A stretch of DNA of 64,000 nt from Escherichia coli (GTDB lineage: Bacteria; Pseudomonadota; Gammaproteobacteria; Enterobacterales; Enterobacteriaceae), in NCBI RefSeq assembly GCF_022846255.1, contig NZ_AP025682.1. One strand, given 5' to 3'. Both the position numbers and the translations under genes were made by a program. Of the stretch, positions 3,451-50,565 are shown one piece after another. The notes under the pieces were generated by a model. It made no database searches. It had not been told where the DNA came from and saw only the letters and a list, made by a program, of their open reading frames with translations. Numbering within the stretch: the stretch's first letter is position 1; every line of letters starts with the position of its first letter.

Positions 3451-4369
3451 TACATTATTAACGTTACGCGACGTCCATATCAATTTCCCTGCCCGAAAAA
3501 ACTGGCTTGGTAAAACTACGGAACATGTTCATGCCATCAATGGTATTGATTTACAGATCCGTCGTGGTGAAACCTTAGGGATCGTCGGTGAGTCAGGCTG
3601 CGGCAAAAGCACCCTCGCACAGCTTTTAATGGGTATGCTGCAACCGAGCCACGGGCAGTACATCCGTTCAGGATCACAACGCATTATGCAGATGGTGTTT
3701 CAGGACCCGCTCTCTTCGCTTAATCCGCGCTTACCGGTGTGGCGCATCATCACGGAACCGCTCTGGATTGCTAAGCGTAGTAGTGAACAACAGCGGCGAG
3801 CGTTGGCAGAGGAGCTGGCTGTGCAGGTGGGTATTCGTCCGGAGTATCTCGACCGCTTGCCTCATGCGTTTTCCGGCGGGCAGCGGCAACGTATCGCCAT
3901 TGCCAGAGCACTCTCTTCGCAGCCTGACGTGATTGTGCTTGATGAACCAACCTCGGCGCTGGATATCTCCGTGCAGGCGCAGATCCTCAATTTACTGGTA
4001 ACGCTACAGGAAAATCGCGAGCTGACTTATGTGCTGATTTCACACAATGTCTCCGTGATACGTCATATGAGCGATCGGGTGGCGGTGATGTATCTCGGAC
4101 AGATTGTGGAACTAGGAGACGCGCAACAGGTGCTGACAGCTCCGGCACATCCATACACCCGATTATTGCTGGATTCCCTCCCCGCCATTGATAAACCGCT
4201 GGAGGAAGAATGGGCATTACGTAAAACGGATCTGCCGGGAAACCGCACGTTTCCGCAAGGCTGTTTTTTCTACGAACGTTGCCCTCTGGCAACCCACGGA
4301 TGTGAAGTCCGACAATCATTAGCAATAAGGGAGGACGGACGTGAGCTCCGGTGCTGGCGGGCGCTGTAG
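3443..4369 (+). CDS. ddpF: D,D-dipeptide ABC transporter ATP-binding protein
   Basis: ORF track extends to 3389, but the conserved protein begins VSDTLLTLRD at a GTG preceded by aggagg and overlapping the ddpD stop; Walker A GESGCGKS and signature FSGGQRQR. Confidence 0.85.
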   Translation: MSDTLLTLRDVHINFPARKNWLGKTTEHVHAINGIDLQIRRGETLGIVGESGCGKSTLAQLLMGMLQPSHGQYIRSGSQRIMQMVFQDPLSSLNPRLPVWRIITEPLWIAKRSSEQQRRALAEELAVQVGIRPEYLDRLPHAFSGGQRQRIAIARALSSQPDVIVLDEPTSALDISVQAQILNLLVTLQENRELTYVLISHNVSVIRHMSDRVAVMYLGQIVELGDAQQVLTAPAHPYTRLLLDSLPAIDKPLEEEWALRKTDLPGNRTFPQGCFFYERCPLATHGCEVRQSLAIREDGRELRCWRAL

Positions 4370-4424
4370 AGATGCTAACAACGCATCAGGCATTCACGCG
4401 CCTGACGCGTCATCCGGCAATGCT

Positions 4425-9084: not shown

Positions 9085-9112
9085 AAAATGGCGCTTCTTA
9101 AAGCGCCATTTT
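9085..9112. terminator. bidirectional Rho-independent terminator between convergent yddM and fdnI
   Basis: 12-bp perfect inverted repeat aaaatggcgctt / aagcgccatttt flanked by an A-run and a T-run. Confidence 0.6.
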
Positions 9113-9133
9113 CAGCTTAAAGTTCAAAAGAGA

Positions 9134-10676: not shown

Positions 10677-13600
10677 TTACGCCTTCTCGATGTTGACTAA
10701 GAACGCTTTATATTCCGGCGTTTGCGAGTTTGCATCACCGACATTCGGCGTCAGAGTGTTAGCGATATAACCTTTACGCGCGACACCCTCAAAGCCCCAG
10801 TGGATCGGAATACCCACCGTTTCAACCTGCTGACCGTTTACATTCAGCGGTTTCAGACGGCGCGTTACCACCGCCACCGCGCGGATAAAGCCACGCTTGC
10901 TTGAGACAGTGACACGATCGCCATTATTAATGCCTTTCGCCGCCGCCAGCGTTTCGCTGATTTCCACAAACTGTTCCGGCTGAGCAATTGCGTTGAGCAA
11001 CGCGTGCTTGGTCCAGGTGTGGAAGTGCTCGGTCAGACGATAGGTCGTACCCACATACGGGAACTGCTCTTTTTTACCCATCCGCAGCGCGTCTTGTTCA
11101 TACAGACGAACGACCGGGTTAGACACCACGTTCGGATGCAGCGGGTTAGTGCCCAGCGGCGTTTCAATCGGCTCGTAGTGTTCCGGGAACGGACCTTCCG
11201 CCATTTTGTTGATGGCAAACAGGCGTCCCATCCCTTCCGGCTGCATGATAAACGGTCCGGTTGGTGTACCTGGCGCGGCATTGCCGAAGTCCGGAATATC
11301 GTTACCCGTCCACTTGCTGCCGTTCCACTGAATCAGCATCCGTTTCGGATCCCACGGTTTACCGTTGATATCCGCCGAAGCACGGTTGTAGAGTACGCGA
11401 CGGTTGAGCGGCCACGCCCAGGCCCATCCCAGCGTATTCCCCAGACCAGATGGGTCAGAGTTATCGCGGTTAGCCATCTGGTTGCCCTGCTCTGTCCAGC
11501 TACCGGTGTAGATCCAGCAAGACGATGCGGTTGTACCGTCATCACGCAGATGCGCAAAGCTACTCAGCAACTGACCTTTCTTCGCAATCAGCACGCCATT
11601 GGCATCATAGAGATCTTCCAGCGCGTAGCCGTTGTTCTCTTTCGCTACTTCGTCAGATTGCGGTTCGTGCGGCTGCTTGTAGTTCCAGCTCATCTTCATC
11701 AGCGGTTCTACGCCTTTACCACCCTCGGCCTGGTACAGCTCGCGCAGATGATGGTAGATACCCGCCAGAATTTCGCCGTCGTTACGTGCTTCGCCCGGCG
11801 CGTCCTGACCTTTCCAGTGCCACTGCAACCAGCGACCGGAGTTAGCGATAGAACCATCTTCTTCAGCAAAGCAGGTCGAAGGCAGACGGAATACTTCAGT
11901 CTGAATAGATGCCGGATCGACATCGTTCGACTCGCCGTGGTTCTGCCAGAAGGTAGAGGTTTCAGTCACCAGCGGATCGATAACCACCATGTACTTCAGT
12001 TTGCTCAGGCAGCTCACCACTTTGTTTTTGTCCGGGAAGGACGCAACCGGGTTAAAGCCCTGGCAGAAATAACCGGTGACTTTGCCTTCGTCCATCATGT
12101 TGAAATACTTGATGACGTCGTAGGTCTGGTCCCACTTCGGCAGCCAGTCGTAGCCCCAGTTGTTCTCTTTCTGCGCGGCATCGCCGTAGAAAGATTTCAT
12201 CAGGCTAACGAAAAACTTCGGATAGTTGCTCCAGTAGTTCACCTGATCAGCCAGCGTCGCTTTCGGCGTGTTCGCTTCCAGATACGACTGCAAATCAACC
12301 TGTTTTTCTGACGGCAGCGTCAGATAACCTGGCAGGCTGGTAGAGAGCAGGCCTAAGTCAGTCAGGCCCTGAATGTTGGAGTGACCACGCAATGCGTTCA
12401 CGCCGCCACCGGCCATACCCATGTTACCGAGCAGCAACTGGATCATCGCCATCGTACGGATGTTCTGCGCACCCACGGTGTGCTGCGTCCAGCCCAGCGC
12501 GTACAGGAAGGTGGTTGTGCGATCCGGTGCGCTGGTGGAGGCCAGCACTTCACACACTTTCAGGAAGTCGGCTTTTGGCGTACCGCAAATGTTTTCTACT
12601 ACGTCCGGCGTGTAGCGGGAAACGTGCGCTTTCAGCAGATTCCATACACAGCGCGGATGAGTCAGCGTGTCATCGCGTTTCGCATAGCCGTTTTCATCGA
12701 ACTGATAGTTCCAGGACGACTTATCGTATTGACGTTTTTCAGCGTCGTAGCCGCTGAACAGACCGTCTTCGAAAGCAAAATCATCACGCACCAGCAGGCT
12801 GGCGTTGGTGTAATGCTTAACGTATTCGGCGTTGATTTTGTTGTTTTCGATCAGGTAGCGCAAAACGCCAGACAGGAACGTAATGTCCGTACCGGAACGA
12901 ATAGGTGCGTAAATATCCGCCACAGAAGCGGTACGCGTAAAACGGGGATCGACAACGATCAAGGTTGCATCGTTGTTGTTTTTCGCTTCCATCGCCCAGC
13001 GGAAACCGACGGGATGCGCTTCAGCAGCGTTACCGCCCATCACCATTACGACGTTAGCGTTTTTGATATCCACCCAGTGGTTGGTCATCGCACCGCGACC
13101 AAATGTTGGAGCAAGACTTGCTACCGTTGGTCCGTGTCAGACGCGCGCCTGGTTGTCTACCGCCAGCATCCCGAGGGAGCGGGCAAATTTTTGAGTCAGC
13201 ATCCCGGTTTCGTTGCTGGCACCGGAAGCACACAGCATACCGGTAGAAAGCCAACGGTTTACCGTTACGCCCTGCTCGTTCTTTTCAATAAAGTTAGCGT
13301 CACGGTCGGCTTTCATCAGCTTCGCAATACGGGAGAATGCTTCTTCCCAGCTAATGCGCTGCCATTTGTCAGAACCTGGCGCACGATATTCCGGGTAGCG
13401 CAGACGGTTTTCGCTGTTGACGTAATCCAGCAAACCGGCCCCTTTCGGGCACAGCGCACCACGGCTTACCGGATGATCCGGGTCACCTTCAATGTGATAA
13501 ATCGCTTCTCTGGCGTTTTTCGCGCCATCACCCAGGCTATACATCAATAGCCCGCAACCTACGGAACAGTATGTGCAGGTGTTACGGATCTCTTTCGCGC

Positions 13601-15110: not shown

Positions 15111-16499
15111 ATGGCACTGCAAAATGAGAAAAATAGTCGTTATCTTTTACGCGACTGGAAACCAGAAAATCCGGCCTTCTGGGAAAATAAAGGAAAGCAT
15201 ATTGCACGAAGAAACCTCTGGATATCAGTCAGTTGCCTACTTCTTGCCTTCTGTGTCTGGATGCTATTTAGCGCAGTTACTGTTAATCTCAATAAAATCG
15301 GTTTTAATTTCACTACCGATCAACTCTTTTTATTAACCGCATTACCCTCCGTTTCTGGCGCATTATTGCGTGTCCCCTACTCCTTTATGGTGCCTATATT
15401 CGGTGGACGCCGATGGACGGTTTTTAGTACTGCAATCCTGATTATTCCTTGCGTCTGGCTCGGAATTGCCGTGCAAAATCCGAATACCCCTTTTGGGATA
15501 TTTATCGTTATCGCTTTGCTATGCGGTTTTGCAGGTGCGAACTTTGCTTCGAGCATGGGCAATATCAGTTTCTTCTTTCCAAAAGCCAAACAAGGGAGCG
15601 CTCTTGGGATTAATGGCGGATTAGGAAACTTAGGTGTAAGTGTGATGCAGCTGGTTGCACCGCTGGTCATTTTTGTCCCCGTATTTGCCTTTCTCGGCGT
15701 CAATGGCGTACCGCAGGCCGACGGTTCGGTGATGTCGCTGGCGAATGCCGCATGGATTTGGGTGCCATTACTGGCGATTGCCACGATCGCCGCCTGGTCA
15801 GGGATGAATGATATCGCCAGTTCACGCGCCTCAATTGCCGACCAGCTCCCTGTCTTGCAACGCCTGCATCTCTGGCTGCTGAGCCTGCTTTATCTTGCCA
15901 CCTTCGGTTCGTTTATCGGTTTTTCTGCGGGTTTTGCCATGCTGGCAAAAACCCAGTTCCCGGATGTGAATATTCTGCGCCTGGCGTTCTTTGGCCCATT
16001 TATCGGTGCCATCGCGCGATCGGTTGGTGGTGCTATTTCCGATAAATTCGGCGGCGTGCGGGTGACGTTGATCAACTTCATTTTTATGGCGATTTTCAGC
16101 GCCCTGCTGTTCCTTACCTTACCGGGCACAGGCTCCGGTAATTTCATCGCATTTTACGCCGTATTTATGGGGCTGTTTCTGACCGCGGGTCTGGGAAGTG
16201 GTTCTACTTTCCAGATGATCGCCGTCATCTTTCGCCAGATAACAATTTATCGGGTGAAGATGAAAGGCGGTAGTGATGAGCAAGCTCAAAGAGAAGCCGT
16301 CACCGAAACGGCAGCCGCTCTGGGCTTTATCTCAGCCATTGGCGCAGTGGGCGGCTTTTTTATTCCGCAGGCGTTTGGCATGTCGCTCAATATGACCGGC
16401 TCTCCGGTGGGCGCGATGAAAGTGTTTTTAATCTTCTACATCGTTTGTGTGCTACTGACCTGGCTGGTTTATGGTCGGCGGAAGTTCAGCCAAAAATAA
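15111..16499 (+). CDS. narU: nitrate/nitrite transporter (MFS)
   Basis: 462-aa product beginning MALQNEKNSRYLLRDWKPENPAFWENKGK; NarK-like. Confidence 0.95.
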   Translation: MALQNEKNSRYLLRDWKPENPAFWENKGKHIARRNLWISVSCLLLAFCVWMLFSAVTVNLNKIGFNFTTDQLFLLTALPSVSGALLRVPYSFMVPIFGGRRWTVFSTAILIIPCVWLGIAVQNPNTPFGIFIVIALLCGFAGANFASSMGNISFFFPKAKQGSALGINGGLGNLGVSVMQLVAPLVIFVPVFAFLGVNGVPQADGSVMSLANAAWIWVPLLAIATIAAWSGMNDIASSRASIADQLPVLQRLHLWLLSLLYLATFGSFIGFSAGFAMLAKTQFPDVNILRLAFFGPFIGAIARSVGGAISDKFGGVRVTLINFIFMAIFSALLFLTLPGTGSGNFIAFYAVFMGLFLTAGLGSGSTFQMIAVIFRQITIYRVKMKGGSDEQAQREAVTETAAALGFISAIGAVGGFFIPQAFGMSLNMTGSPVGAMKVFLIFYIVCVLLTWLVYGRRKFSQK

Positions 16500-16507
16500 G
16501 AGATCGA

Positions 16508-16530
16508 TGCCTGACACGTCTTATCAGGCT
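16508..16530. repeat. REP-like palindromic element in the narU-narZ spacer
   Basis: gcctgacacgtcttatcaggc resembles the REP unit seen at 24228. Confidence 0.3.
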
Positions 16531-16593
16531 ACAACCGTGTCTCATCCGACAAGGCATCAGATCCCAATTCATTCCTGGAGCAGGAGTTATGTC

Positions 16594-19500
16594 ATGAGTA
16601 AACTTTTGGATCGCTTTCGCTACTTCAAACAAAAGGGCGAAACCTTTGCCGATGGTCACGGACAGGTGATGCATAGCAACCGCGACTGGGAGGACAGCTA
16701 TCGCCAGCGTTGGCAGTTCGACAAAATCGTGCGTTCCACCCACGGTGTTAACTGTACAGGCTCCTGCAGCTGGAAAATCTACGTTAAAAATGGTCTGGTG
16801 ACCTGGGAAATCCAACAGACCGACTACCCGCGCACTCGCCCTGACCTGCCAAATCATGAACCTCGCGGCTGCCCGCGTGGCGCAAGTTACTCCTGGTATC
16901 TCTACAGCGCTAACCGCCTGAAATACCCGCTCATTCGTAAACGACTGATTGAACTGTGGCGCGAAGCCCTCAAACAACACAGCGATCCGGTACTGGCGTG
17001 GGCATCGATTATGAACGATCCGCAAAAGAGCCTGAGCTACAAACAAGTGCGTGGACGCGGTGGCTTTATCCGCTCCAACTGGCAGGAGCTAAATCAGCTG
17101 ATTGCCGCCGCTAACGTCTGGACCATCAAAACTTACGGCCCGGATCGCGTTGCCGGTTTCTCGCCGATTCCGGCGATGTCGATGGTTTCTTACGCCGCCG
17201 GAACACGCTATCTGTCGTTGTTAGGTGGCACCTGTTTAAGCTTCTACGACTGGTATTGCGACCTGCCGCCCGCCTCGCCGATGACCTGGGGCGAGCAAAC
17301 CGACGTACCGGAATCTGCCGACTGGTATAACTCCAGTTACATCATCGCCTGGGGGTCTAACGTACCGCAGACACGTACGCCGGACGCCCATTTCTTTACC
17401 GAAGTACGCTACAAAGGCACTAAAACCATCGCCATTACCCCTGACTACTCTGAAGTGGCCAAATTGTGCGACCAGTGGCTGGCACCGAAACAAGGCACTG
17501 ATAGTGCCCTGGCAATGGCAATGGGCCATGTCATTTTAAAAGAGTTTCATCTCGATAATCCCAGCGATTATTTTATCAACTACTGCCGCCGCTACAGCGA
17601 CATGCCGATGCTGGTAATGCTGGAACCTCGCGACGACGGCAGCTACGTTCCCGGGCGCATGGTCCGCGCATCTGACCTGGTGGATGGACTGGGCGAAAGC
17701 AATAATCCGCAGTGGAAAACCGTGGCAGTTAATACCGCAGGTGAATTGGTAGTGCCGAACGGTTCGATTGGTTTTCGCTGGGGAGAAAAAGGCAAATGGA
17801 ACCTGGAATCCATTGCCGCCGGTACGGAAACCGAATTGTCGTTAACCCTGCTCGGTCAACATGACGCCGTTGCAGGCGTGGCCTTCCCCTACTTTGGCGG
17901 CATTGAAAATCCACATTTTCGCAGCGTAAAACACAATCCTGTCCTGGTGCGCCAATTGCCCGTTAAAAACCTGACATTAGCCGATGGTAGCACCTGTCCG
18001 GTGGTCAGCGTTTATGATTTGGTACTGGCGAATTACGGCCTCGATCGCGGGCTGGAAGATGAAAACAGCGCGAAAGATTACGCTGAAATCAAACCTTATA
18101 CCCCTGCCTGGGGCGAGCAAATTACCGGCGTTCCGCGCCAGTATATTGAAACCATCGCCCGTGAATTTGCCGATACCGCCCATAAAACGCATGGGCGCTC
18201 GATGATTATTCTCGGCGCAGGTGTTAACCACTGGTATCACATGGACATGAACTACCGCGGGATGATCAATATGCTGATCTTCTGCGGTTGTGTCGGGCAA
18301 AGCGGTGGCGGCTGGGCACACTATGTCGGTCAGGAAAAACTGCGCCCGCAAACCGGCTGGCTGCCTCTGGCCTTTGCGCTCGACTGGAACCGACCACCGC
18401 GCCAGATGAACAGCACCTCGTTTTTCTACAATCACTCCAGCCAGTGGCGCTATGAAAAAGTCACCGCGCAGGAATTGCTCTCACCGCTCGCCGATGCCAG
18501 TAAATACAGCGGTCACCTGATTGATTTCAACGTTCGCGCCGAACGTATGGGCTGGCTACCTTCTGCGCCGCAGCTGGGGCGTAACCCGCTCTCCCTGAAA
18601 GCCGAAGCCGACAAGGCCGGATTGTCACCCGCCGAATTTACCGTCCAGGCACTGAAGTCAGGCGAATTACGCATGGCCTGCGAACAGCCGGACAACGGCA
18701 GCAACCATCCGCGTAACCTGTTTGTCTGGCGTTCAAACCTGCTTGGCTCTTCCGGCAAGGGCCACGAGTATATGCAGAAGTATCTGCTGGGTACGAAAAG
18801 TGGCATTCAGGGGGAAGAACTTGGACCGACGGAGGGAATCCAACCAGAAGAAGTCGAGTGGCAAACTGCGGCGATTGAAGGCAAGCTCGACCTGCTGGTG
18901 ACGCTCGACTTCCGCATGTCCAGTACCTGCCTGTTCTCCGATATCGTTCTGCCCACCGCCACCTGGTACGAAAAAGACGATATGAATACCTCGGATATGC
19001 ATCCATTTATTCATCCGCTTTCTGCGGCGGTCGATCCGGCGTGGGAATCACGCAGCGACTGGGAAATCTACAAAGGTATCGCTAAAGCCTTTTCGCAAGT
19101 GTGCATAGGGCATCTCGGCAAAGAAACCGACGTGGTATTACAACCACTGCTGCATGACTCCCCGGCAGAGCTTTCACAGCCGTGTGAAGTGCTCGACTGG
19201 CGCAAAGGTGAATGCGATCTGATTCCAGGCAAAACCGCGCCGAATATTGTGGCGGTGGAGCGCGACTACCCTGCTACCTATGAACGCTTTACCTCACTCG
19301 GGCCATTGATGGACAAACTTGGCAACGGCGGTAAAGGGATTTCGTGGAATACCCAGGATGAAATTGATTTCCTCGGTAAACTCAATTACACCAAGCGTGA
19401 TGGCCCGGCAAAGGGGCGTCCGCTGATTGACACCGCCATTGACGCATCAGAAGTGATTCTGGCACTGGCACCGGAAACCAACGGCCATGTTGCAGTCAAA

Positions 19501-23326: not shown

Positions 23327-24220
23327 ATGAAACCGCAGGTTTACCACGTCGATGCTTTTACCTCTCAACCGTTTCGCGGCAATTCTGCCGGTGTTGTTTT
23401 CCCCGCCGATAATCTCAGTGAAGCGCAAATGCAGCTTATCGCCCGCGAGTTAGGTCATTCGGAAACTGCTTTTCTGCTGCACAGAGACGACAGCGATGTG
23501 CGCATCCGCTACTTTACGCCAACGGTTGAAGTTCCGATTTGTGGTCACGCGACAGTAGCTGCGCACTATGTACGTGCAAAGGTGTTAGGTTTAGGAAATT
23601 GCACGGTCTGGCAAACATCGCTGGCAGGAAAACATCGCGTGACTATCGAAAAGCACAACGATGATTATCGTATTTCGCTGGAACAAGGTACGCCGGGCTT
23701 TGAGCCACCGCTGGAAGGTGAAACACGTGCGGCGATTATCAACGCGCTTCATCTCACTGAAGACGATATTCTGCCAGGCTTGCCAATTCAGGTGGCAACC
23801 ACAGGACACTCAAAAGTGATGATCCCACTGAAACCGGAAGTGGATATCGACGCCCTTTCGCCTGACCTTAATGCGCTGACCGCTATCAGCAAACAGATTG
23901 GCTGCAATGGTTTCTTCCCGTTCCAGATCCGCCCAGACAAAAACGAAACCGACGGTCGTATGTTCTCGCCTGCCATTGGTATTGTGGAAGATCCGGTGAC
24001 TGGCAATGCCAATGGCCCGATGGGTGCATGGTTAGTACATCACAACGTATTGCCCCACGATGGCAACGTGTTGCGTGTTAAAGGCCATCAGGGGCGCGCA
24101 TTAGGGCGTGACGGCGTGATTGAAGTGACGGTGACAATTCGTGATAACCAACCGGAGAAAGTCACCATTTCTGGCGTGGCGGTGATTTTGTTTCATGCCG
24201 AATGGGCAATTGAACTCTGA
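23327..24220 (+). CDS. yddE: PhzF-family isomerase-like protein
   Basis: 297 aa matching remembered YddE. Confidence 0.9.
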   Translation: MKPQVYHVDAFTSQPFRGNSAGVVFPADNLSEAQMQLIARELGHSETAFLLHRDDSDVRIRYFTPTVEVPICGHATVAAHYVRAKVLGLGNCTVWQTSLAGKHRVTIEKHNDDYRISLEQGTPGFEPPLEGETRAAIINALHLTEDDILPGLPIQVATTGHSKVMIPLKPEVDIDALSPDLNALTAISKQIGCNGFFPFQIRPDKNETDGRMFSPAIGIVEDPVTGNANGPMGAWLVHHNVLPHDGNVLRVKGHQGRALGRDGVIEVTVTIRDNQPEKVTISGVAVILFHAEWAIEL

Positions 24221-24227
24221 AACCGTT

Positions 24228-24304
24228 GCCTGATGCGCTTCGCTTATCAGGTCTACAACCGGGCTAATGTAGGCCGGATAAGGCGTTTACGCCACATCCG
24301 GCAA
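24228..24304. repeat. BIME / paired REP elements between convergent yddE and nhoA
   Basis: gcctgatgcgcttcgcttatcaggtctac followed by gtaggccggataaggcgtttacgccacatccggcaa, classic REP consensus. Confidence 0.6.
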
Positions 24305-24315
24305 CCTGACATAAA

Positions 24316-25161
24316 TTATTTTCCCGCCTCCGGGTGCGTATCAAACGCCGCCATCACCAGCGCTAACTCATCCACAGTAAAGCCATGTTTCGCATCATCT
24401 ACGCCCAGACCAAACTGTTCCTGCATCACGGCATATAACGACGCCACATCTGGTAGATTTCGCTGCTCAACTGCGTGCCCATTTTCATAATGGGTAAAAT
24501 GAAAATTGGTCAGCGTTAGCTTGCCACCGTCCGGCAAATGGCGACACATCAGCAAATGATGGCGAAAATGCGACTGCGGCCAGTGCGCCGACCAGAAATT
24601 GCCCATCACATAATCGCTTTGTTGCTGCTCGCAGAGATCAAAACGGTACATCGACTGCCAGTGCTGATGATGATTAAACTGCAACACCCAATCATCACCC
24701 TCCTGCAACAACCGATACTCTCCGTGTGGCGTGGTTTGCATGATATCCGGCATTAAACGAATCGGCGCGGTTAGCGTCTGCCCACCGAAACCGACATCAG
24801 CAATCCATTTTTCCCCTTCCAGTTCCACCAACAGCAAACGATGGGTGCGCGGCGGTAATGCTGGCGGATTTGATAACACTACGCGCCCTAACAAGCTGCG
24901 AACGTTAAACCCCAGCTCGCGTAACACCCGCTCAAACACGCCATTCTGCTCAAAACAGTAACCACCACGACGGGCTATCACCAGTTTCTCTTCCAGCGAT
25001 TGATCATCAAGCTGTATTTCCCTCGGCAGCAAAACGTCGAGATTTTCAAACGGAATGGTGCAATTGTGTTTCAGGTGCAATGCACGCAGCGTATCAATAT
25101 TGGCCGCAGCAGCTCCCAACCAGTTAATACGGGCAAAATAATGATTCAGAATGGGCGTCAT
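24316..25161 (-). CDS. nhoA: arylamine N-acetyltransferase / N-hydroxyarylamine O-acetyltransferase
   Basis: 281 aa, NAT family. Confidence 0.95.
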   Translation of the reverse strand: MTPILNHYFARINWLGAAAANIDTLRALHLKHNCTIPFENLDVLLPREIQLDDQSLEEKLVIARRGGYCFEQNGVFERVLRELGFNVRSLLGRVVLSNPPALPPRTHRLLLVELEGEKWIADVGFGGQTLTAPIRLMPDIMQTTPHGEYRLLQEGDDWVLQFNHHQHWQSMYRFDLCEQQQSDYVMGNFWSAHWPQSHFRHHLLMCRHLPDGGKLTLTNFHFTHYENGHAVEQRNLPDVASLYAVMQEQFGLGVDDAKHGFTVDELALVMAAFDTHPEAGK

Positions 25162-26136: not shown

Positions 26137-26441
26137 GATTGTGCTCCTTTTGAAAGATGTCAGTAAAATTAACACACGTTGTGAATGTCGTGTGTCCGGT
26201 AATGCGTTTTTACGGCAATAATGCCTACTTGAAATTGTACATATTTGTACTACACACTTTTAAATAAAGCGCCAATGAAAACGTTAACTTGCAGAATATA
26301 TTCTTCGCCAACATGCCATTAAGAAAACATCAAGTTCCCGGCTTGCCAATTTGTTAACGCCCATTATAGTTATTCTTGCCCTCACTAAAAATTTTCATCC
26401 GTAATTACCCCCAATAAAAATCCATTCTGGAGACGCTTAAG

Positions 26442-28418
26442 ATGCAGCTTAATCATATCGTTAAAAGTCTGCTAATAACGGGATTATTCACCACCAGTTC
26501 TTTACCTCTCCTCGCGGCGGAAGCTCCTAAAGACGCCACCGCAGCCACGCAACAAGCAAACAATTTACTCTACAACCAGTTGCCGTTTGCCGATAACACT
26601 GACTTTACTGATGCCCATAAAGGTTTTATTGCCCCTATCCCTCAAGACGTGATTAAGGGCGAACAAGGGAATGTTATCTGGGATCCACAACATTACGCTT
26701 TTATCAAAGAAGGCGATAAAGCCCCTGATACGGTGAATCCGAGTTTATGGCGTCAGGCGCAACTGATAAATATCAGCGGGTTATTCGAAGTAACTGAAGG
26801 TGTCTATCAGATTCGCAATCTCGATCTATCAAATATGACCATCATTGAAGGCAAAGAGGGTATTACCGTCGTTGATCCCCTTGTTTCAGCAGAAACAGCC
26901 AAAGTGGGTATGGATCTCTATTACAAAAATCGCGGCAAAAAACCGGTAGTGGCGGTTATCTATACACACAGTCATGTCGATCACTACGGTGGTGTTCGTG
27001 GCGTAATTGATGAAGCTGACGTTAAATCAGGCAAAGTTAAAATCTATGCGCCAGCCGGATTTTTGGAGGAAGCCGTTTCCGAAAACATCATGGCTGGCAA
27101 TGTTATGAGCCGACGAGCCAGTTATATGTATGGCAACTTATTGAAACCTGATGTTAAAGGCCAGGTGGGGGCTGGACTGGGAACGACTACTTCAGCAGGA
27201 ACAGTCACGTTGATTGCTCCTACTAACTACATCACCAAAACCGGACAAATAGAAACTATTGACGGGTTGACTTATGATTTCCTGATGGCGCCAGGTTCTG
27301 AAGCGCCTTCTGAAATGCTGTGGTTTATTGAAGAAAAGAAACTGATCGAAACCGCTGAAGATGTCACGCACACCCTTCATAACACCTATTCGCTGCGTGG
27401 GGCTAAAATTCGCCAACCGCTGCCGTGGTCAAAATATATTAATGAAGCTCTCAATTTGTGGGGTGATAAAGCCGAGATTATTCTCGCTCAACATCACTGG
27501 CCAACCTGGGGCAACGATAACGTGGTCAAACTGCTTAAAAGCCAGCGTGATTTGTATCGTTACATCAATGATCAAACTCTGCGCATGGCTAATCAAGGGA
27601 TGACCCGTGATGAAATTGCCGCAAACTTTAAACTGCCCTCTTCACTGGCTAACACCTGGGCGAATCGCGGCTATTACGGTTCGGTAAGTCATGACGTGAA
27701 AGCAACTTACGTGCTTTATCTCGGCTGGTTTGATGGTAACCCCGCGACGCTTGATGAACTGCCGCCAGAAGAAGGCGCAAAAAAATTCGTCGAGTATATG
27801 GGCGGTGCTGATGCCATTTTACAGAAAGCCAAACAGGATTATGACCAGGGTAATTTCCGCTGGGTTGCCCAAGTTGTTAGTAAGGTGGTGTTTGCCGATC
27901 CAAACAACCAGGCAGCGAGAGATCTGGAAGCTGATGCGCTTGAGCAGTTAGGCTATCAGGCTGAATCTGGGCCGTGGCGTAATTTCTATCTCACTGGTGC
28001 ACAGGAATTGCGTAATGGCGTACAAAAATTACCAACACCAAATACTGCCAGCCCAGACACCGTGCGTGCGATGACGCCGGAGATGTTCTTTGATTATCTT
28101 GCCGTCCATATTAATGGTGAGAAAGCGGCAGATGCCAAAACCGTGTTGAATTTCGATTTTGGTGAAGATGGCGGCACCTATAAAGTGGAGCTTGAAAATG
28201 GTGTTCTCAATCATACCGCTGGTGTAGAGGCTTCGGATGCTGATGCCACTATCACTCTGTCTCGTGATGTATTGAACAAAATTGTACTGAAAGAAGAGAC
28301 GCTGAAAGAAGCCACGGCCAAAGGAGATGTCAAAATTACTGGCAATGCGGAAAAACTCAACGAGCTGTTAGGTTATATGGATAATTTTGAATTTTGGTTC
28401 AATATAGTGACACCATAA
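26442..28418 (+). CDS. secreted alkyl/aryl-sulfatase-like metallo-beta-lactamase-fold hydrolase
   Basis: 658 aa with N-terminal signal peptide (..SLPLLAAEAP) and metal-binding motif HSHVDHYGG; SdsA1/YjcS-like architecture; not at this position in K-12 as I recall. Confidence 0.75.
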   Translation: MQLNHIVKSLLITGLFTTSSLPLLAAEAPKDATAATQQANNLLYNQLPFADNTDFTDAHKGFIAPIPQDVIKGEQGNVIWDPQHYAFIKEGDKAPDTVNPSLWRQAQLINISGLFEVTEGVYQIRNLDLSNMTIIEGKEGITVVDPLVSAETAKVGMDLYYKNRGKKPVVAVIYTHSHVDHYGGVRGVIDEADVKSGKVKIYAPAGFLEEAVSENIMAGNVMSRRASYMYGNLLKPDVKGQVGAGLGTTTSAGTVTLIAPTNYITKTGQIETIDGLTYDFLMAPGSEAPSEMLWFIEEKKLIETAEDVTHTLHNTYSLRGAKIRQPLPWSKYINEALNLWGDKAEIILAQHHWPTWGNDNVVKLLKSQRDLYRYINDQTLRMANQGMTRDEIAANFKLPSSLANTWANRGYYGSVSHDVKATYVLYLGWFDGNPATLDELPPEEGAKKFVEYMGGADAILQKAKQDYDQGNFRWVAQVVSKVVFADPNNQAARDLEADALEQLGYQAESGPWRNFYLTGAQELRNGVQKLPTPNTASPDTVRAMTPEMFFDYLAVHINGEKAADAKTVLNFDFGEDGGTYKVELENGVLNHTAGVEASDADATITLSRDVLNKIVLKEETLKEATAKGDVKITGNAEKLNELLGYMDNFEFWFNIVTP

Positions 28419-28432
28419 ATTTACTGCATACC

Positions 28433-28455
28433 GGGCAGGTATCCTGCCCTTTTTT
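28433..28455 (+). terminator. Rho-independent terminator after the sulfatase gene
   Basis: gggcagg-tat-cctgccc hairpin followed by a T6 run. Confidence 0.6.
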
Positions 28456-28464
28456 GGTTAAAAA

Positions 28465-29562
28465 ATGGCTGAACGAAGAAAAACGCATCACTCATGGAAA
28501 ACCCGCCGCGATATGGTTATTCGCGGCATGACGATTAGTTTGCCATGGTTTGCTTTTATCAATGTCAGTTTTGCATTGATAATTTTGCTGCGCCGTGTTC
28601 TGTTTAATGACCTTACTCCACCCTGGTTAAATGAAAAAAGCCTTATACATTCTATTGATATATCTGCAACGGGTATTCTGCTGATTTGCAGTGGTTTACT
28701 ACTCATCCCTCGGCAAAAAACATTACCTATCCAGGTGCTATTAGTTGCCCTGAGCCTGCTATGGTCATGGTGTAGTTATCACTTTATTGCGTACTGGACG
28801 CTGCAGTTTGCTTATCCACTATGTGTATTATTAATGCTTAGTGGCGTTGTCGCACTTTATTTCCATACCCCATCATTGCTCGCATTTGTCATTCCCTTAT
28901 GGTTCACCACTCCAATAGCGAGTCTTATGCTTAATCAACAGATCAATATTCATTTTGCTGTTGTATGGTGTATTTTTTCACTGGCGCTATATGGTGGGCG
29001 ACTCATTTTGTTACGTTGGTTTGAAGAAGCATGGGTACAAAACAGTTATAACAACCAGTTAATTAATCGCCTTGATGCATTAGCACATCGCGATCCTTTA
29101 ACTGGGATAGCAAACCGACGTGCAATGAACAGTATCTTACACGACGCGATGGATAACGGCGGGTCATTTGCTCTTATTATGCTGGATGTCGATTTTTTTA
29201 AACGTTACAACGACACTTACGGGCATCCTGCTGGGGATCGTTGTCTAATACAAGTTGCCGACGCTCTACAGCGTTCAACTCGCCAGTCGGAGGATGTTGT
29301 TGTCCGTTATGGTGGCGAAGAGTTTGCCATCATACTTTTTAATGCAACATTGCCGGAAGCAGAGACGGTAGCAGCCAGAGTGAAGCAAGAACTTAAACTG
29401 GCAGCTATCCCACATCAGGCATCTGCTGTTAATGCATTCGTTACGGTTAGTCAGGGGATTACCTGTTCTGCTCCCGCAAAAACGGCTGAACAAATTATTT
29501 CAGATGCCGACGCTGCGTTATACCGGGCGAAAGAAAGTGGGCGAAATCGATGGGCTTTATAA
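28465..29562 (+). CDS. membrane-anchored diguanylate cyclase (GGDEF domain)
   Basis: 365 aa: about 190-aa N-terminal region with several predicted TM helices, then GGDEF domain with active-site RYGGEEF; precise start codon uncertain (several in-frame Met). Confidence 0.8.
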   Translation: MAERRKTHHSWKTRRDMVIRGMTISLPWFAFINVSFALIILLRRVLFNDLTPPWLNEKSLIHSIDISATGILLICSGLLLIPRQKTLPIQVLLVALSLLWSWCSYHFIAYWTLQFAYPLCVLLMLSGVVALYFHTPSLLAFVIPLWFTTPIASLMLNQQINIHFAVVWCIFSLALYGGRLILLRWFEEAWVQNSYNNQLINRLDALAHRDPLTGIANRRAMNSILHDAMDNGGSFALIMLDVDFFKRYNDTYGHPAGDRCLIQVADALQRSTRQSEDVVVRYGGEEFAIILFNATLPEAETVAARVKQELKLAAIPHQASAVNAFVTVSQGITCSAPAKTAEQIISDADAALYRAKESGRNRWAL

Positions 29563-29589
29563 GCATTAGGGGACTGGACAGATTACGTC

Positions 29590-30328
29590 TCTCCTCGCTT
29601 AACAAGGGCTGACGGAGGGTAATAATTGTCTATAGCTATCTTCTTAGCGATGTCTTTCTGGTATCACATTGGATCGGTGCAATTATTTTTCCTTTAATAC
29701 CCATTATGTTAAGAAATTCAGAACCAGCTGTAATCTCATTGTTTTTTTCATTCGTCTTGATCTTCCAAGGAATCTGACTGTGCATTATTGAGAACACACT
29801 AATAACGTGAATCGCTCCCTTGCGACGACTCTTGTCATAAGAGTACCGGAGCGTTTTTCCATCAATTGCAATGACGTCTTTATCATCTGAAGAATGGCAG
29901 TCAAGCATCCAGTTAATAAAGCACTCATGAAATTTTTCAGGACTGATACAGGATACAACTCTGGCAATGGTATCGTGAACAGGAATACCATTATCAAAAT
30001 CACCATATTGCTTCAAAAAATCGAGATGTGTTTCCCCAAAATCCTCTATATCTTCCCAGCCTTCTGCACCCGAAATAACGACACAAATAGTCAACAGTAG
30101 AATATCCGATAATTTATGCTCCACTTTCCAGGCTTGTCTGTAATCGGGGATAATAGAAATATGTTCCATCAATTTTTTAAGTTCCATTTTGTTCTCCTTA
30201 ATTATGTAAAGAGTATTTGATCATGTATAAGCAATAAAAAACAGCTTTAGGTAATGAGGAATATCTCAATTTTTAAACATAAAATGCGAATTATTTAGTA
30301 CAAAAAAGCAGCGTTACGTGATCTTTCC
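29590..30328 (-). mobile_element. truncated, diverged ISAs1-family (H-repeat) element copy
   Basis: 183-aa ORF (29636..30187) is similar but not identical to the N-terminal part of the H-repeat transposase at 31727..32554, then diverges; its 5' flank (about 30190..30328) repeats 32560..32695. Confidence 0.6.
29636..30187 (-). pseudogene. ISAs1-family transposase, truncated copy
   Basis: N-terminal about 150 aa align with the second copy, C-terminal tail diverges and terminates early. Confidence 0.65.
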
Positions 30329-30348
30329 ATGGAAAAGAGAGTAATACA

Positions 30349-30364
30349 CTGATTTTTAACGCAG
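30349..30364 (+). promoter_or_regulatory. candidate LexA (SOS) box upstream of the symE-like gene
   Basis: CTG-N10-CAG (ctgatttttaacgcag) with AT-rich spacer about 65 bp upstream of the ATG; deviates from CTGT/ACAG at two conserved positions; K-12 symE is SOS-regulated. Confidence 0.25.
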
Positions 30365-30427
30365 ATTGCCAGTGCTACCAACACTGACAATCTGCTCACC
30401 ACAAGCAACTAACAGAGGTAGTTAATC

Positions 30428-30747
30428 ATGGCTGAACACGATATTACGCCAGAAGTCGCCATTTCCAAAACACAGCGCCGCTATAAAGTCGGCTATGTCA
30501 GAGCCCGCCACATAAACAGCAAACCACGTACTACTCACGACACCCCAGCCTGAACCTTAAGGGCGACTGGCTGAAAGAGGCCGGATTTGATACCGGACGG
30601 GGTGTCACGGTGAAGATTTCGGAGGGGTGCCTGACCATCATCGCTGACAGTGACGAGGTGCAGGAACTGCGGGAGGAACTTTATCAGGTTAAACAGGTGG
30701 TTAAGGGGATGCGGAACGGGATGTTTAGTGTGCTGAACGAGAATTAA
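30428..30747 (+). pseudogene. symE-like type I toxin gene (AbrB-fold), apparently frameshifted
   Basis: 41 codons from ATG 30428 (MAEHDITPEVAISKTQRRYKVGYVRARHINSKP...) end at TGA about 30551; the SymE core LNLKGDWLKEAGFDTGRGVTVKISEGCLTII... continues in the -1 frame to TAA about 30745; restoring one C near 30550 would fuse them. Confidence 0.6.
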
Positions 30748-30797
30748 ATAATAAAAAAGCCGGGGAGATTTAAAATCTTCCCGGCTTTCTTTATCAT

Positions 30798-31100
30798 CTA
30801 AAAAGGTAATAATCCTCTAATAGGAGAAAATTTTGTAATATCAATACCTTGTAATTTAAAGTAATTAAAAGCATCTTCTATATTGGAAAACGCACTAATT
30901 TCTTCAGTTGCATAATCTTCGAACACTTCCATTTTATTTTCTGGTATTTTGAAAAAATAGGTATTGTATTTTTCATCCTGTTTTTTAATGGCATATTGGA
31001 AAAAATAACTTTCACCATTTATTTCCTTTATCTCATCAAAACCTCTAACCTTACCATTCTCTATAGCAACAATTAATTTTTCAATAGACAAATCAACCAT
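30798..31100 (-). CDS. putative immunity protein for the upstream toxin-like ORF
   Basis: 100-aa acidic, low-GC ORF; its ATG overlaps the stop of the upstream ORF (ATGgtTGA), the usual toxin-immunity arrangement; no sequence family recognised. Confidence 0.45.
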   Translation of the reverse strand: MVDLSIEKLIVAIENGKVRGFDEIKEINGESYFFQYAIKKQDEKYNTYFFKIPENKMEVFEDYATEEISAFSNIEDAFNYFKLQGIDITKFSPIRGLLPF

Positions 31101-31440
31101 CTATATCTATCCTCACCATTGTCCCATCAGAACGTTTAATATTTATATGAGGCAAAGAACCATGCCCTGTGCCTTTATGGTCATCATGACCATATACACG
31201 ACCAGTATTAGAATCAATAGGGTAATCTTTCCTATAACGGACAGTACCATCTCTTTTCTTAAATTGTTCCATCTTATGTTTTTTTCTAATACCGGCGGCA
31301 TCCTGCGAACTGATCCCTCTTACTTTTTGAGCATCAGGAAAGGCCTCCATCAATAAATCATGGGCTTCCTGTTTTGATTTAACTGTGACAACGGTTCCTT
31401 GAGGCCCCAGGGCAAGATTACGAAAGCCCGCTCCCCGCAA
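31093..31440 (-). CDS. putative orphan polymorphic-toxin C-terminal domain (3' fragment of an IS-disrupted gene)
   Basis: Track ORF begins inside the ISAs1 end with a TTG; first ATG gives [10 protein letters not shown]... (about 31350); C-terminal His-rich motif [21 protein letters not shown] is reminiscent of HNH/beta-beta-alpha-Me nuclease toxins; low GC. Confidence 0.4.
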
Positions 31441-32695
31441 GGACTGACGCCAGATAGTTTCTGTCCATGGCTGCTTTTCGCATCTTACGTCTTAACCCTG
31501 CCTTGAATACCTTATCATTCGTCAAAATATTAATAGCGATGTGCCGTATCCCTGAAAATAATTCTGCTGCATTTCCTCTTCTTATTTTGCAGTCGTCTTC
31601 ATTCATTACCACGTCCAGACGCCAGTGCAGCTTATTCTCCACGTGCCAGTGGTTTCGGATTGCTGTGGCGAACTTCTCTGCGGTTAAATCAGCAGAACTG
31701 ATATAATATCTGACCGTCATTTCTGGCTATTTCTTTTGTTCTGCTATTATGGACCGAAAGGAGACTGCCACGCATAATTTCTTCAGTCCTTTCCATTCAA
31801 ACGTGAAATCAATAAGTTCATCAGGGACATCGCAAACAATATGAAGACGGATTTCTTCTCTGCCGTGACTTTTTTCACTAATTGCGTAACTGTCATGCTC
31901 TGGATTATTCAATTCTTTCAGCGGAAATTTTTCCTCGAAGGCTTTATTTAGCCGCCCCTGGTTTCCTTTTACAGCGAATAAATAATCACCTCCCTGTTTT
32001 TGTATCTTCTCTGCAATATCTTTCTGGCAACCCATCGCATCAGTTGTGATGATTTTTCCTTTAATATCCAGCATGTTAAGAAGTTCAGGGATAGCTGTAA
32101 TTTCATTGGATTTCTCATCCGTCCTGATCTGTCCGATGACCAGACTGTGCATTGTTGAGAACGCACTAATGACATGAATCGCTCCCCTGCGGCGACTCTT
32201 GTCATAAGAATGTCGGAGCGTTTTTCCATCAATTGCAATAACGTCTTTATCATCTGAAGAATGGCAGTCACGCATCCAGTTAATAAAGCACTCGTGAAAT
32301 TTTGCAGGACTGATACAGGATACAACTCTGGCAATGGTATCGTGAACAGGAATACCATTTTCAAAATCACCATATTGCTTCAAAAAATCGAGATGTGTTT
32401 CCCCAAAACCCTCTATATCTTCCCAGCCTTCTGCACCAGAAATAACGGCACAAATAGTCAACAGTAGAATATCCGATAATTTATGTTCCACTTTCCAGGC
32501 TTGTCTGTAATCGGGGATAATAGAAATATGTTCCATCAATTTTTTAAGTACCATTTTGTTCTCCTTAATTATGTAAGGAGTATTTGATCATGTATAAGCA
32601 ATAAAAAACAGCTTCAGGTAATAAGGAATATCTCAATTTTTAAACATAAAATGCGAATTATTTAGTACAAAAAAGCAGCGTTACGTGATCTTTCC
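31400..32695 (-). mobile_element. ISAs1-family (H-repeat) insertion sequence
   Basis: Transposase reading frame of about 379 codons (31418..32554) with the [26 protein letters not shown]-terminal signature; upstream boundary set where the two copies' flanks diverge (after ...gtgatctttcc). Confidence 0.7.
31418..32554 (-). pseudogene. ISAs1-family transposase, split by a frameshift near 31720-31727
   Basis: 275-aa N-terminal ORF (31727..32554) and 100-aa C-terminal ORF (31418..31720) are contiguous in different frames. Confidence 0.7.
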
Positions 32696-32871
32696 CTGGT
32701 TATCGCTGTTCTTTCCCCTTGACCAGGCAAATATTTTTCATTATGGATCCATACCTTGCTATAATCAATTGTATTCTCAAAAATCGATCTGGCCAATGTT
32801 AATTCACCAGATGTCATTCTCCTTAATGACATATCCTTTCCCCTGGAAATAATATCTTTCAGATAAAACAC
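32662..32871 (-). pseudogene. 5' fragment of a gene truncated by the ISAs1 insertion; N-terminus resembles DUF4157-type domains
   Basis: 69-aa ORF whose last about 12 codons are encoded by IS-end sequence; motif LARSIFENTIDYSKVWIH resembles the E..fG.DfS.VRVH N-terminal signature of DUF4157 (a recollection, not verified). Confidence 0.35.
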
Positions 32872-33769
32872 AAACGCTCTTTGATGTTCAACATTCCCAC
32901 TTTATACAGTATTGATGGCATCATCTTCATAGAAAATGAAATCAAAGCAAGTTATCAACGTTTCCCATTACGATTTCTTAACATTAATTCTCAGCATTTT
33001 TATTAATCTATTTTCAATATCAATAACCGATGCAAATGATTACGCAGTTAACATAATCCTTATCAATTGATTAATATCTGTAAACGCTACCGCCCCACCC
33101 TGATATCTTAATCTGCACATAGCAATCTTAACGTTATGCCCCATACATTAGTAATGTAAATTAAGAATTCGGAATATATCAAATTCACTTCATAAATTAA
33201 TATCGGGAATGATATACACATTAATTATATTGAAGTAATGGTTTAAGAGTTGTAATGACCATGGAACAGGACTAATTCCAGAAACTCCTGTTGGGCAATA
33301 GCGCGTTTATCATCCTACATGCCTCTTACATTTTTTAGCCTTTTCTTTAACGTCAGCAATTGGCTCATTTAATCAGCAATGGTATTGGTATTTGGCGTAT
33401 TACCCCTGAAACCCGTCATGTGCTAGCACCTCACTATTCAATGAGCCAACCACGCCAGTGTCCACTGCAACCACTGGCGTTCAGAGCGACGAACGAGTGG
33501 CGCAAGAGTAGGACTGCCGTCGGGCATCATCAAACCAATAGTTGTTGTTTCCGTCAAAATTTCATCAGGTTGCTATTTGGTTGCCGGCCGCCTTTATCCC
33601 CACATATTTATAGCGGGATTATTTTGCATCGTTACACGATAAAAGGTAGGATTCTGCGCCGACAGTTATACCCATAAAGAATAATGGTGAATCTTGTCAT
33701 CGCCAGGATGAATAAACATTGTTCATGGCAACTTATATGACTTTTTCATTAAAGCAATCAGGGAGAGCA

Positions 33770-35269
33770 ATGAGTAAACACGACACCGACACTTCAGATC
33801 AACACGCCGCGAAACGCCGCTGGCTTAATGCCCACGAAGAGGGGTATCACAAAGCGATGGGCAATCGCCAGGTACAGATGATCGCCATTGGCGGCGCGAT
33901 TGGCACCGGCTTGTTTTTAGGTGCAGGAGCCCGACTGCAAATGGCGGGGCCAGCACTGGCACTGGTCTATTTAATCTGCGGCCTGTTTTCATTTTTTATT
34001 CTGCGTGCATTGGGTGAGCTGGTGCTACACCGCCCTTCCAGTGGCAGTTTTGTCTCTTATGCCCGTGAGTTTTTAGGAGAGAAAGCCGCTTACGTTGCAG
34101 GCTGGATGTACTTCATCAACTGGGCGATGACGGGGATTGTCGATATTACCGCCGTCGCTCTGTATATGCATTACTGGGGTGCGTTTGGCGGCGTGCCGCA
34201 GTGGGTCTTTGCGCTCGCTGCGCTGACCATCGTTGGTACCATGAATATGATTGGTGTGAAATGGTTTGCGGAGATGGAGTTCTGGTTTGCGCTTATTAAA
34301 GTGCTCGCCATCGTGACCTTTTTGGTCGTGGGTACAGTGTTCCTCGGTAGCGGTCAGCCGCTGGATGGCAACGCCACTGGCTTTCATTTAATTACCGATA
34401 ACGGCGGCTTTTTCCCCCACGGTTTGCTGCCTGCGCTGGTGTTGATTCAGGGCGTAGTGTTTGCTTTTGCCTCCATTGAAATGGTGGGTACAGCGGCCGG
34501 AGAATGTAAAGATCCGCAGACCATGGTGCCTAAAGCGATTAACAGTGTGATTTGGCGTATTGGTCTGTTTTACGTCGGCTCCGTGGTGTTGCTGGTTATG
34601 TTATTGCCGTGGAGCGCGTATCAGGCGGGGCAAAGTCCGTTCGTGACGTTTTTCTCTAAACTGGGTGTGCCATATATCGGCAGCATTATGAACATTGTGG
34701 TGCTGACCGCTGCCCTCTCCAGCCTGAATTCAGGTCTGTACTGCACCGGGCGTATTCTGCGCTCGATGGCGATGGGCGGTTCCGCACCGAGTTTTATGGC
34801 GAAAATGAGTCGTCAGCATGTGCCGTATGCCGGGATTCTGGCGACACTGGTTGTGTATGTCGTCGGCGTATTCCTCAACTATCTGGTGCCGTCGCGCGTA
34901 TTTGAGATTGTGTTGAACTTCGCGTCGCTGGGAATCATCGCTTCATGGGCGTTTATCATCGTGTGCCAGATGCGCCTGCGTAAAGCGATTAAAGAAGGCA
35001 AAGCAGCGGATGTCAGTTTTAAACTGCCTGGCGCGCCCTTCACTTCCTGGCTGACATTACTGTTTTTACTGAGTGTCCTTGTGCTGATGGCGTTCGATTA
35101 CCCGAACGGGACTTATACTATCGCGGCGCTGCCGTTTATCGGTATTCTGCTGGTTATAGGCTGGTTTGGTGTGCGCAAACGCGTTGCTGAAATTCACAGC
35201 ACTGCGCCAGTCGTCGAGGAAGATGAAGAACAACAGGAAATTGTGTTTAAGCCTGAAACGGCGAGTTAA
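33770..35269 (+). CDS. ansP: L-asparagine permease (APC family)
   Basis: 499-aa product beginning MSKHDTDTSDQHAAKRRWLNAHEEGYHK; track ORF starts upstream at 33719. Confidence 0.95.
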   Translation: MSKHDTDTSDQHAAKRRWLNAHEEGYHKAMGNRQVQMIAIGGAIGTGLFLGAGARLQMAGPALALVYLICGLFSFFILRALGELVLHRPSSGSFVSYAREFLGEKAAYVAGWMYFINWAMTGIVDITAVALYMHYWGAFGGVPQWVFALAALTIVGTMNMIGVKWFAEMEFWFALIKVLAIVTFLVVGTVFLGSGQPLDGNATGFHLITDNGGFFPHGLLPALVLIQGVVFAFASIEMVGTAAGECKDPQTMVPKAINSVIWRIGLFYVGSVVLLVMLLPWSAYQAGQSPFVTFFSKLGVPYIGSIMNIVVLTAALSSLNSGLYCTGRILRSMAMGGSAPSFMAKMSRQHVPYAGILATLVVYVVGVFLNYLVPSRVFEIVLNFASLGIIASWAFIIVCQMRLRKAIKEGKAADVSFKLPGAPFTSWLTLLFLLSVLVLMAFDYPNGTYTIAALPFIGILLVIGWFGVRKRVAEIHSTAPVVEEDEEQQEIVFKPETAS

Positions 35270-35320
35270 TTGCAAAACTGCCCGGCTACGTGCCGGGCAA
35301 ATTCAGACTACTGACGAAGG

Positions 35321-35345
35321 TGCCGGATGCGGCGTGATAAAAGTC
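35321..35345. repeat. REP element
   Basis: tgccggatgcggcgtga matches the REP consensus. Confidence 0.45.
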
Positions 35346-35381
35346 AGGCAAGTCTCTCCATTTTCACCCTCGCCATATCTA

Positions 35382-50474: not shown

Positions 50475-50484
50475 GTCGTGTGTT

Positions 50485-50515
50485 GCCGGATGCGGCGTGA
50501 CACCTTACCCGGCAG
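50485..50515. repeat. REP element downstream of yncJ
   Basis: tgccggatgcggcgtgacaccttacccggca, REP consensus. Confidence 0.5.
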
Positions 50516-50565
50516 GCAATATCATGCAGATTTGATGAGTGGTGAGTAACCCGAAAACTGGCGTT

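Follow-up and report, generated by a model that had tools for sequence, protein, structure and literature searches.

The stretch analysed here (the window) comprises 64,000 nucleotides of an Escherichia coli contig (NZ_AP025682.1, assembly GCF_022846255.1). A 2.1-kb query around the element described below matches 5,424 of 5,426 complete E. coli genomes, best in strain RM14723 (99.6% identity) and at ~96.7% in K-12, and the window is a segment of a non-K-12 E. coli. By the annotation of RM14723 and K-12, its gene order begins with dosP and osmC, continues further on with fdnGHI, yddG, narU, narZYWV, yddE and, on the opposite strand, nhoA, and then includes ansP and yncE and, later, yncJ and rlhA. 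The genes yddE and nhoA converge, and the 95-bp gap between their stop codons holds a REP element at 24227-24303 that is composed of two REP units and a linker (Table 1). The first unit begins 6 nt past the yddE stop codon, and the second ends 12 nt before that of nhoA. An 85-aa ORF (24233-24490) that overlaps the element is spurious. A sequence-only reading of the window had placed a REP palindrome here, with coordinates that prove to be one base off, and had listed clear REP-consensus palindromes at several other intergenic sites as well; that description fits the yddE/nhoA site only, the rest being worn-down copies.

Table 1. Coding sequences flanking the yddE/nhoA element, parts of the element and other REP-derived sites in the window.
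Feature	Position	Strand	Basis
yddE CDS	23327..24220	+	ORF list; annotation of the 99.6%-identical strain RM14723
z1-type (short Z) REP	24227..24256	-	2 mismatches in 30 against the consensus; TGCCTGATGCGCTTCGCTTATCAGGTCTAC
12-nt linker	24257..24268	.	Lies between CTAC and GTAG; alignment with KY1497; AACCGGGCTAAT
y-type REP	24269..24303	+	2 mismatches in 35 against the consensus; GTAGGCCGGATAAGGCGTTTACGCCACATCCGGCA
nhoA CDS	24316..25161	-	ORF list; RM14723 annotation
Decayed z1 REP beside the osmC 3' end (dosP/osmC)	4365..4392	+	GTAG at 4366-4369, CGCATCAGGCA at 4382-4392
Decayed z1-type REP (16508-16532) with linker bases AACCG (16533-16537), narU/narZ	16508..16537	-	Local alignment
Half y REP, ansP/yncE (convergent)	35321..35337	-	Exact 17-mer TGCCGGATGCGGCGTGA on the + strand, expected 0.00 times by chance
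Degenerate y REP, yncJ/rlhA (convergent)	50484..50514	-	Edit distance 6/35; 0/60 shuffles below 9

The z1 unit reads on the + strand as an iREP (TGCC...CTAC), with its GTAG tag on the - strand (CTAC at 24253-24256), and the y unit has an intact 5' GTAG tag at 24269-24272. Within the y unit T11, A12A13, C27 and G32 are all kept, and only the loop (C20T) and the bulge (G26A) depart from the consensus. Identity to the full consensus is 33/35 for the y unit and 28/30 for the z1 unit. Features that define an E. coli y-type REP, namely the consensus, the GTAG tag, the bulged palindrome and an extragenic and repeated occurrence, are found at this site.

The consensus sequences, including that of the y unit (GTAGGCCGGATAAGGCGTTCACGCCGCATCCGGCA, ~35 nt), were checked in two ways. 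The published account of the y unit (PMC8266576), with a length of 35 nt, T11, A12A13, a loop at 18-21, G26C27 and G32, fits the consensus exactly, and the units are also present in the K-12 elements REP325 and fdnI/yddM (REP120). Scoring consisted of a full-length edit-distance scan of both strands, set against the whole window shuffled 60 times with its dinucleotides preserved. The lowest distance reached in a shuffle ranged over 7-10 for z1 and over 9-12 for both y and z2, whereas the units at yddE/nhoA lie at a distance of 2 each, and the formal scoring thus bore out the REP palindrome proposed for this gap. The Z unit is clearly of the short kind, with an edit distance of 2/30 to z1 versus 9/37 to z2. 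Applied to K-12, the same scan gives unit ends at exactly 1508824, 1534958 and 1552168. These are the annotated ends of REP117 (1508792-1508824, yncJ/rlhA), REP118 (1534884-1534958, yddE/nhoA) and REP120 (1552072-1552168, fdnI/yddM) in the supplement of a recent preprint (10.64898/2026.03.23.713779), and this exact agreement both confirms the scan and settles the orthology. The REP names used here are those of that supplement; the RefSeq feature table of NC_000913.3 used here lists no REP features.

A 158-nt query spanning the locus has a median of at least 30 matches per E. coli genome and the sequence is therefore repetitive. Searches with the core motifs alone (GCCKGATGCG and CTTATCMGGCCTAC, mismatches allowed) stayed near the chance expectation, and a search for the ERIC/IRU consensus gave no matches. 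An Rfam scan of the whole window returned no REP-like family. Its only matches, both at the gathering score, are the Hfq-binding sRNA isrA (30499-30617, - strand, 96 bits) and the selenocysteine insertion element SECIS_3 (13084-13142, - strand, 84 bits), the latter in fdnG by position.

RNA folding, proposed earlier as a check, gave the expected bulged hairpins for both units. The y unit forms a hairpin of -19.9 kcal/mol (z = -5.1), with stems of 7 bp and 4 bp around a 2x2 internal loop that reads AA/AC instead of AA/GC and retains C27. The z1 hairpin has -11.5 kcal/mol (z = -3.4), and the 95-nt gap as a whole folds into two separate hairpins on either strand. Among ten orthologues 98% of the stem cells are paired and both stems are kept, with zero double-sided or compensatory changes; since the divergence is so small and no change is compensatory, selection on structure cannot be inferred from this set. 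In the z1 stem the ten orthologues show three one-sided changes (C24229T and A24246G in K-12, C24252T in the window), as seen when window positions 24227-24256 are compared with 34929-34958 of the K-12 segment L001. On the yddE-sense strand each replaces a Watson-Crick pair by G·U, and on the nhoA-sense strand each would be an A·C mismatch; three changes are too few for a test of strand-specific selection on RNA.

The lengths of the units place the element among the known classes of BIME. A z1 unit has 29 nt and a z2 unit 37 nt (PMC8266576), each repeat of REP325 is one Z2 plus one Y unit (10.64898/2026.03.23.713779), and the K-12 sequence of REP325 indeed shows a 37-nt Z; the 30-nt Z at yddE/nhoA is hence a z1. 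In the published scheme BIME-1 consists of z1 plus y and an L linker, long and conserved, in which an IHF site is often present, whereas BIME-2 consists of z2 plus y in tandem arrays (Ton-Hoang et al.). At yddE/nhoA there is one z1 and one y unit, inverted and in single copy, as in BIME-1, but the long L linker is absent from the window copy, which has 12 nt and no IHF core. The tandem z2 plus y array of a BIME-2 is also absent here, where only one pair is found. Judged by its sequence, the element is a BIME-1 by composition that has lost the IHF-carrying core of its linker, an 'atypical BIME' in the terms of the literature.

Comparison with individual systems bears this out. With BIME-1/RIB/RIP elements such as K-12 REP120 at fdnI/yddM it shares z1 plus y, CTAC facing GTAG and the single copy, but their linkers have ~35-38 nt with an IHF-like core, which is missing in the window. 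With the BIME-2 element REP325 (yjdM/yjdN) the y unit is identical at 36/37 positions, and the alternating inverted layout and a short linker are shared; REP325, however, has a 37-nt z2 and is amplified to 12 hairpins, in contrast to a 30-nt z1 and a single pair. The REPIN-RAYT systems of Pseudomonas and others likewise have two inverted REPs per unit and an association with a domesticated HUH Y1 transposase, whereas the group 2 REPs of enterobacteria are long and bulged and carry a GTAG tag. The 64-kb window contains no RAYT gene.

By position and sequence, the element is the orthologue of K-12 REP118, which occupies the same locus in a gap of the same 95 bp, consists likewise of z1, a 12-nt linker and y, and is 95% identical over the 231 bp compared. 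The window copy is the nearer to the consensus, its z1 unit having 2 differences versus 5 in K-12. The tag of the y unit is GTAG in the window versus GTAT in K-12, and the bulge carries G26A versus G. The change from GTAG to GTAT is found in K-12 and many other genomes, which argues that the element is decaying and is not kept as a substrate of the transposase.

The linker differs more widely between strains. KY1497 has a gap of 118 bp and a 35-nt linker, AGCCGCATCGTAATTTATTGAATATATTGGCTAAT, which can be divided into AGCCG-CATCGTAATTTATTGAATATATT-GGCTAAT. Its reverse complement contains ATTCAATAAATTA, which by our own reading differs at a single position from the IHF consensus WATCAANNNNTTR, and its core resembles the BIME-1 linker of K-12 at fdnI/yddM. 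The window linker corresponds to that of KY1497 minus the central 23 nt (AACCG | GGCTAAT), and these 23 nt hold the IHF-like site. In TUM1886 and GPEC403-625 the linker is wholly absent (CTA|TGTAT), the B2 strains sampled have AACCGGACTAAT in its place, and Escherichia sp. E1V33 carries at the same locus z1, AACC and a y unit without GTAG, the result of a different deletion. Four of these alleles were counted in the 5,426 genomes with junction-specific 53-nt queries. The K-12-type junction is found in 2,138 genomes, the window type in 764 (139 of them exact), the linker-less allele in 219 and the full L linker with the IHF-like site in 100. A 12-nt linker is present in at least 2,900 of the 5,426. 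The ~2,200 genomes that matched none of the four queries carry variants that break the 28-nt seed, as for example in the sampled B2 strains with AACCGGACTAAT. Identity bands of the 158-nt locus query were discarded as an allele count, being confounded by split alignments.

When species-representative genomes were scanned with a degenerate pattern of the yddE C-terminus, two loci came up; these show that the element is present outside E. coli, but two do not suffice for polarising the linker deletions. By these comparisons the element is old at its locus, inherited vertically across E. coli and at least one other Escherichia species, and drifts through point changes and linker deletions. Parsimony suggests that the full L form is ancestral and that most lineages have lost the IHF linker from what was a BIME-1; alternatively, the full-L allele could have been restored by gene conversion from another BIME-1. 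It is also conceivable, although we think it unlikely, that the allelic series reflects recurrent targeted excision of the linker by the REP-associated transposase TnpA_REP (cleavage at C|T) and not random slippage, and that the alleles might set different 3'-end processing or termination of yddE and nhoA. For the 12-bp deletion in TUM1886 and GPEC403 such cleavage was considered and set aside, as the junction that it predicts is, by our own reading, one base off the one observed.

The other REP-derived sites of the window are in a different state. One lies between yncJ and rlhA and is the orthologue of K-12 REP117. The sequence-only reading had a palindrome here at 50485..50515, and the derivation from a REP holds, with an alignment score of 35 that 0/300 shuffles reach; the unit is, however, degenerate and tagless, the CTAC/GTAG having been lost with GGC in its place, and shows no clear palindrome. 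Its hairpin is strong on the - strand only (-18.7 kcal/mol, z = -3.9, versus z = -0.5 on the + strand). In the gap between the co-directional genes narU and narZ a possible palindrome had been noted, and local alignment of the intergenic region with the window's own BIME confirms that it derives from a REP (score 33 versus a null maximum of 23, 0/300 shuffles). The alignment reads TGCCTGA--CACGT--CTTATCAGG-CTACAACCG and shows a z1-like unit with 5 positions deleted. This copy is decayed, with a full-length edit distance of 7/30 that 6/60 shuffles reach and that is thus borderline, and a fold of -8.2 kcal/mol with a 6-bp stem only. In K-12 the site carries a further 13-bp deletion.

Between ansP and yncE, where a palindrome had been reported at 35321..35345, one 17-nt arm of a y unit is exact, but the second arm, the tag and the REP hairpin are absent (folding z = -0.7), and the site is not a palindrome. 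K-12 and KY1497 share this truncation, and the half site appears to be unannotated in K-12, as the REP numbering runs from REP117 straight to REP118. In the same gap, 14 nt past the ansP stop codon, a perfect 7-bp GC hairpin (GCCCGGC-TACGT-GCCGGGC, 35283-35301) is followed on the minus strand by AGTTTTGCAATT; it may be a real terminator of the converging yncE transcript, although our simple terminator scan makes no call there. The stretch from pptA to ansP (~26400-33700) is a variable region: by comparison with RM14723 it contains pseudogenes related to rhs and T6SS, along with a SymE-family toxin, whereas rhsE, ydcD and ydcC occupy it in K-12, and vgrG and an intact RHS protein in KY1497.

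A fifth site, missing from the earlier list, lies beside the osmC 3' end and matches K-12 at every one of the 81 nt compared. Its full-length edit distance of 8/30 is not significant alone, and its local alignment score is 26 against a null maximum of 25 (0/300 shuffles). A strong hairpin beside osmC (4381-4413, -22.5 kcal/mol on the minus strand) falls within this comparison and is likewise unchanged in K-12. The ddpXABCDF operon, which occupies ~6 kb between osmC and dosP in K-12, is absent from the window (gap 4237-4425) and from RM14723. The four sites other than yddE/nhoA are older, decaying copies of the REP family with little or no hairpin left. One of the five REP-derived sites is intact. 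Five sites in 64 kb is the density expected from K-12, where ~355 REP elements in 4.64 Mb amount to ~1 per 13 kb (10.64898/2026.03.23.713779).

The fdnI/yddM gap differs between the strains compared. In K-12 it has 406 bp (2992-3397 of segment L009) and contains two tandem canonical BIME-1 copies, REP120 and a second one, each flanked by copies of a terminator-like hairpin. In the window (9085-9134) only 50 bp with a single hairpin and no REP are left, and KY1497 has IS200C in this gap.

Taken together, and with high confidence, we explain the yddE/nhoA element as a copy of the REP/BIME family, the orthologue of REP118 and a BIME-1 devoid of its IHF site, which probably acts as a hairpin barrier in 3' UTRs. 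The earlier identification of REP/BIME sequences in the window is supported by the consensus scoring and by the orthology with REP118 and REP117. REP elements were presumably seeded and remodelled by TnpA_REP, an HUH enzyme that binds GTAG and the bulged hairpin on ssDNA, cleaves CT sites in iREPs and linkers and can recombine BIMEs (PMC8266576; Ton-Hoang et al.). The window y unit retains, at the sequence level, all known TnpA_REP recognition positions. In one genome, NZ_CM187531 (segment L004, NZ_CM187531.1 2521-4037), IS1397 of the IS3 family has inserted into the y REP loop of the yddE/nhoA BIME, with the junction ...GGCGTTT[TGAACTG...CAGTTCA]TTACGCC..., in keeping with the published insertion specificity of IS1397 for REP units. 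The part of recombination target, which the sequence-only reading had assigned to such palindromes, is thus matched by the literature and, in this one genome, by the insertion. The strain is a laboratory 'capsule spontaneous mutant', and its BIME is of the linker-less type.

If the gap is transcribed, both converging mRNAs would carry the two stable hairpins in their 3' UTRs, starting 6 nt past the yddE and 12 nt past the nhoA stop codon. There they would most likely block 3'-to-5' exonucleases on both mRNAs and, together with Rho, probably restrict transcription that runs on, antisense, into the opposing gene. For K-12, Rho-utilisation (rut) peaks are listed at 1534700-1534866, on the yddE-sense strand and 18-51 nt beyond REP118; they overlap a 'BST' entry, taken as a bicyclomycin-sensitive transcript (10.64898/2026.03.23.713779, supplement). 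According to the preprint, REP325 and other REPs act as partly Rho-dependent terminators and mRNA stabilisers, and mRNA half-lives are not changed uniformly by REPs (10.64898/2026.03.23.713779). Some 60% of the REPs in E. coli occupy extragenic convergent positions, and genome-wide the expression of convergent gene pairs is higher where they have REPs. The roles of mRNA stabiliser and terminator proposed in the sequence-only reading agree with this literature in a generic way, with the exception that no site is an intrinsic U-tract terminator.

The chief rival reading takes the element for a relic that does nothing for the host at this locus, a piece of selfish or neutral DNA retained because its deletion brings no benefit. 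We regard this as quite possible, and the present data do not separate it from function as a hairpin barrier. It is favoured by the several independent linker deletions, the GTAG to GTAT change in the K-12-type allele of 2,138 genomes, the plain decay of the four other sites in the window, the lack of a covariation signal and the absence from the window of K-12's REP120, with the flanking fdnI and yddM nevertheless intact. Against it stand the stems kept in 10/10 orthologues, at a divergence too small to serve as proof of selection, the rut peaks and 'BST' entry just downstream of REP118 and the genome-wide expression of REP-bearing convergent gene pairs.

Far less probable is an ordinary Rho-independent bidirectional terminator that merely resembles REPs. 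The position between convergent genes and the stable GC-rich hairpins would suit such a terminator, but neither hairpin is followed by a T-run, whichever strand is read, and a convergent origin could not attain the match to the REP consensus described above. The terminator scan found no terminator-like sites in 23900-24700, 16400-16650 or 50400-50650, and its single match in 35200-35450 (35411-35435) lies inside yncE, away from the REP half-site. As no REP-derived site has a U-tract terminator, none is a classical intrinsic terminator, and any termination at yddE/nhoA would therefore be Rho-dependent or a roadblock effect. The hairpin of the fdnI/yddM gap in the window (~9090-9108), with its A-run and T-run, provides the contrast and is read as a genuine bidirectional terminator.

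Even more improbable is that the element works as a functional canonical BIME-1 (RIB/RIP) through binding of IHF between its REPs. The single-copy z1 plus y layout and the KY1497 allele with its IHF-like site speak for it, but in the window the entire IHF-like core is deleted, which refutes the idea for this allele; a 12-nt linker is too short for an IHF site, and the best-known activity of BIME-1 is therefore inapplicable here. That the matches are chance GC-rich palindromes can practically be dismissed, since only the borderline narU/narZ unit lends itself to that view and nothing at yddE/nhoA does, where the shuffle controls exclude it, no shuffle nears the scores of this site or of 50484, the 17-mer at 35321 is not expected by chance, and the intergenic alignment scores of three sites are reached in 0/300 shuffles.

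The REP and BIME elements of E. coli have been catalogued for decades, and the family found here is an already known one, its copies corresponding to numbered K-12 elements. Beyond correct annotation the finding has little importance. For the genome itself, it means that the intergenic hairpins described here should be annotated as repeat elements and not as terminators, sRNAs or small ORFs. For the family, the yddE/nhoA locus offers a miniature of the decay of a BIME-1, in which the IHF linker and the tag are lost, internal deletions arise and IS1397 inserts.
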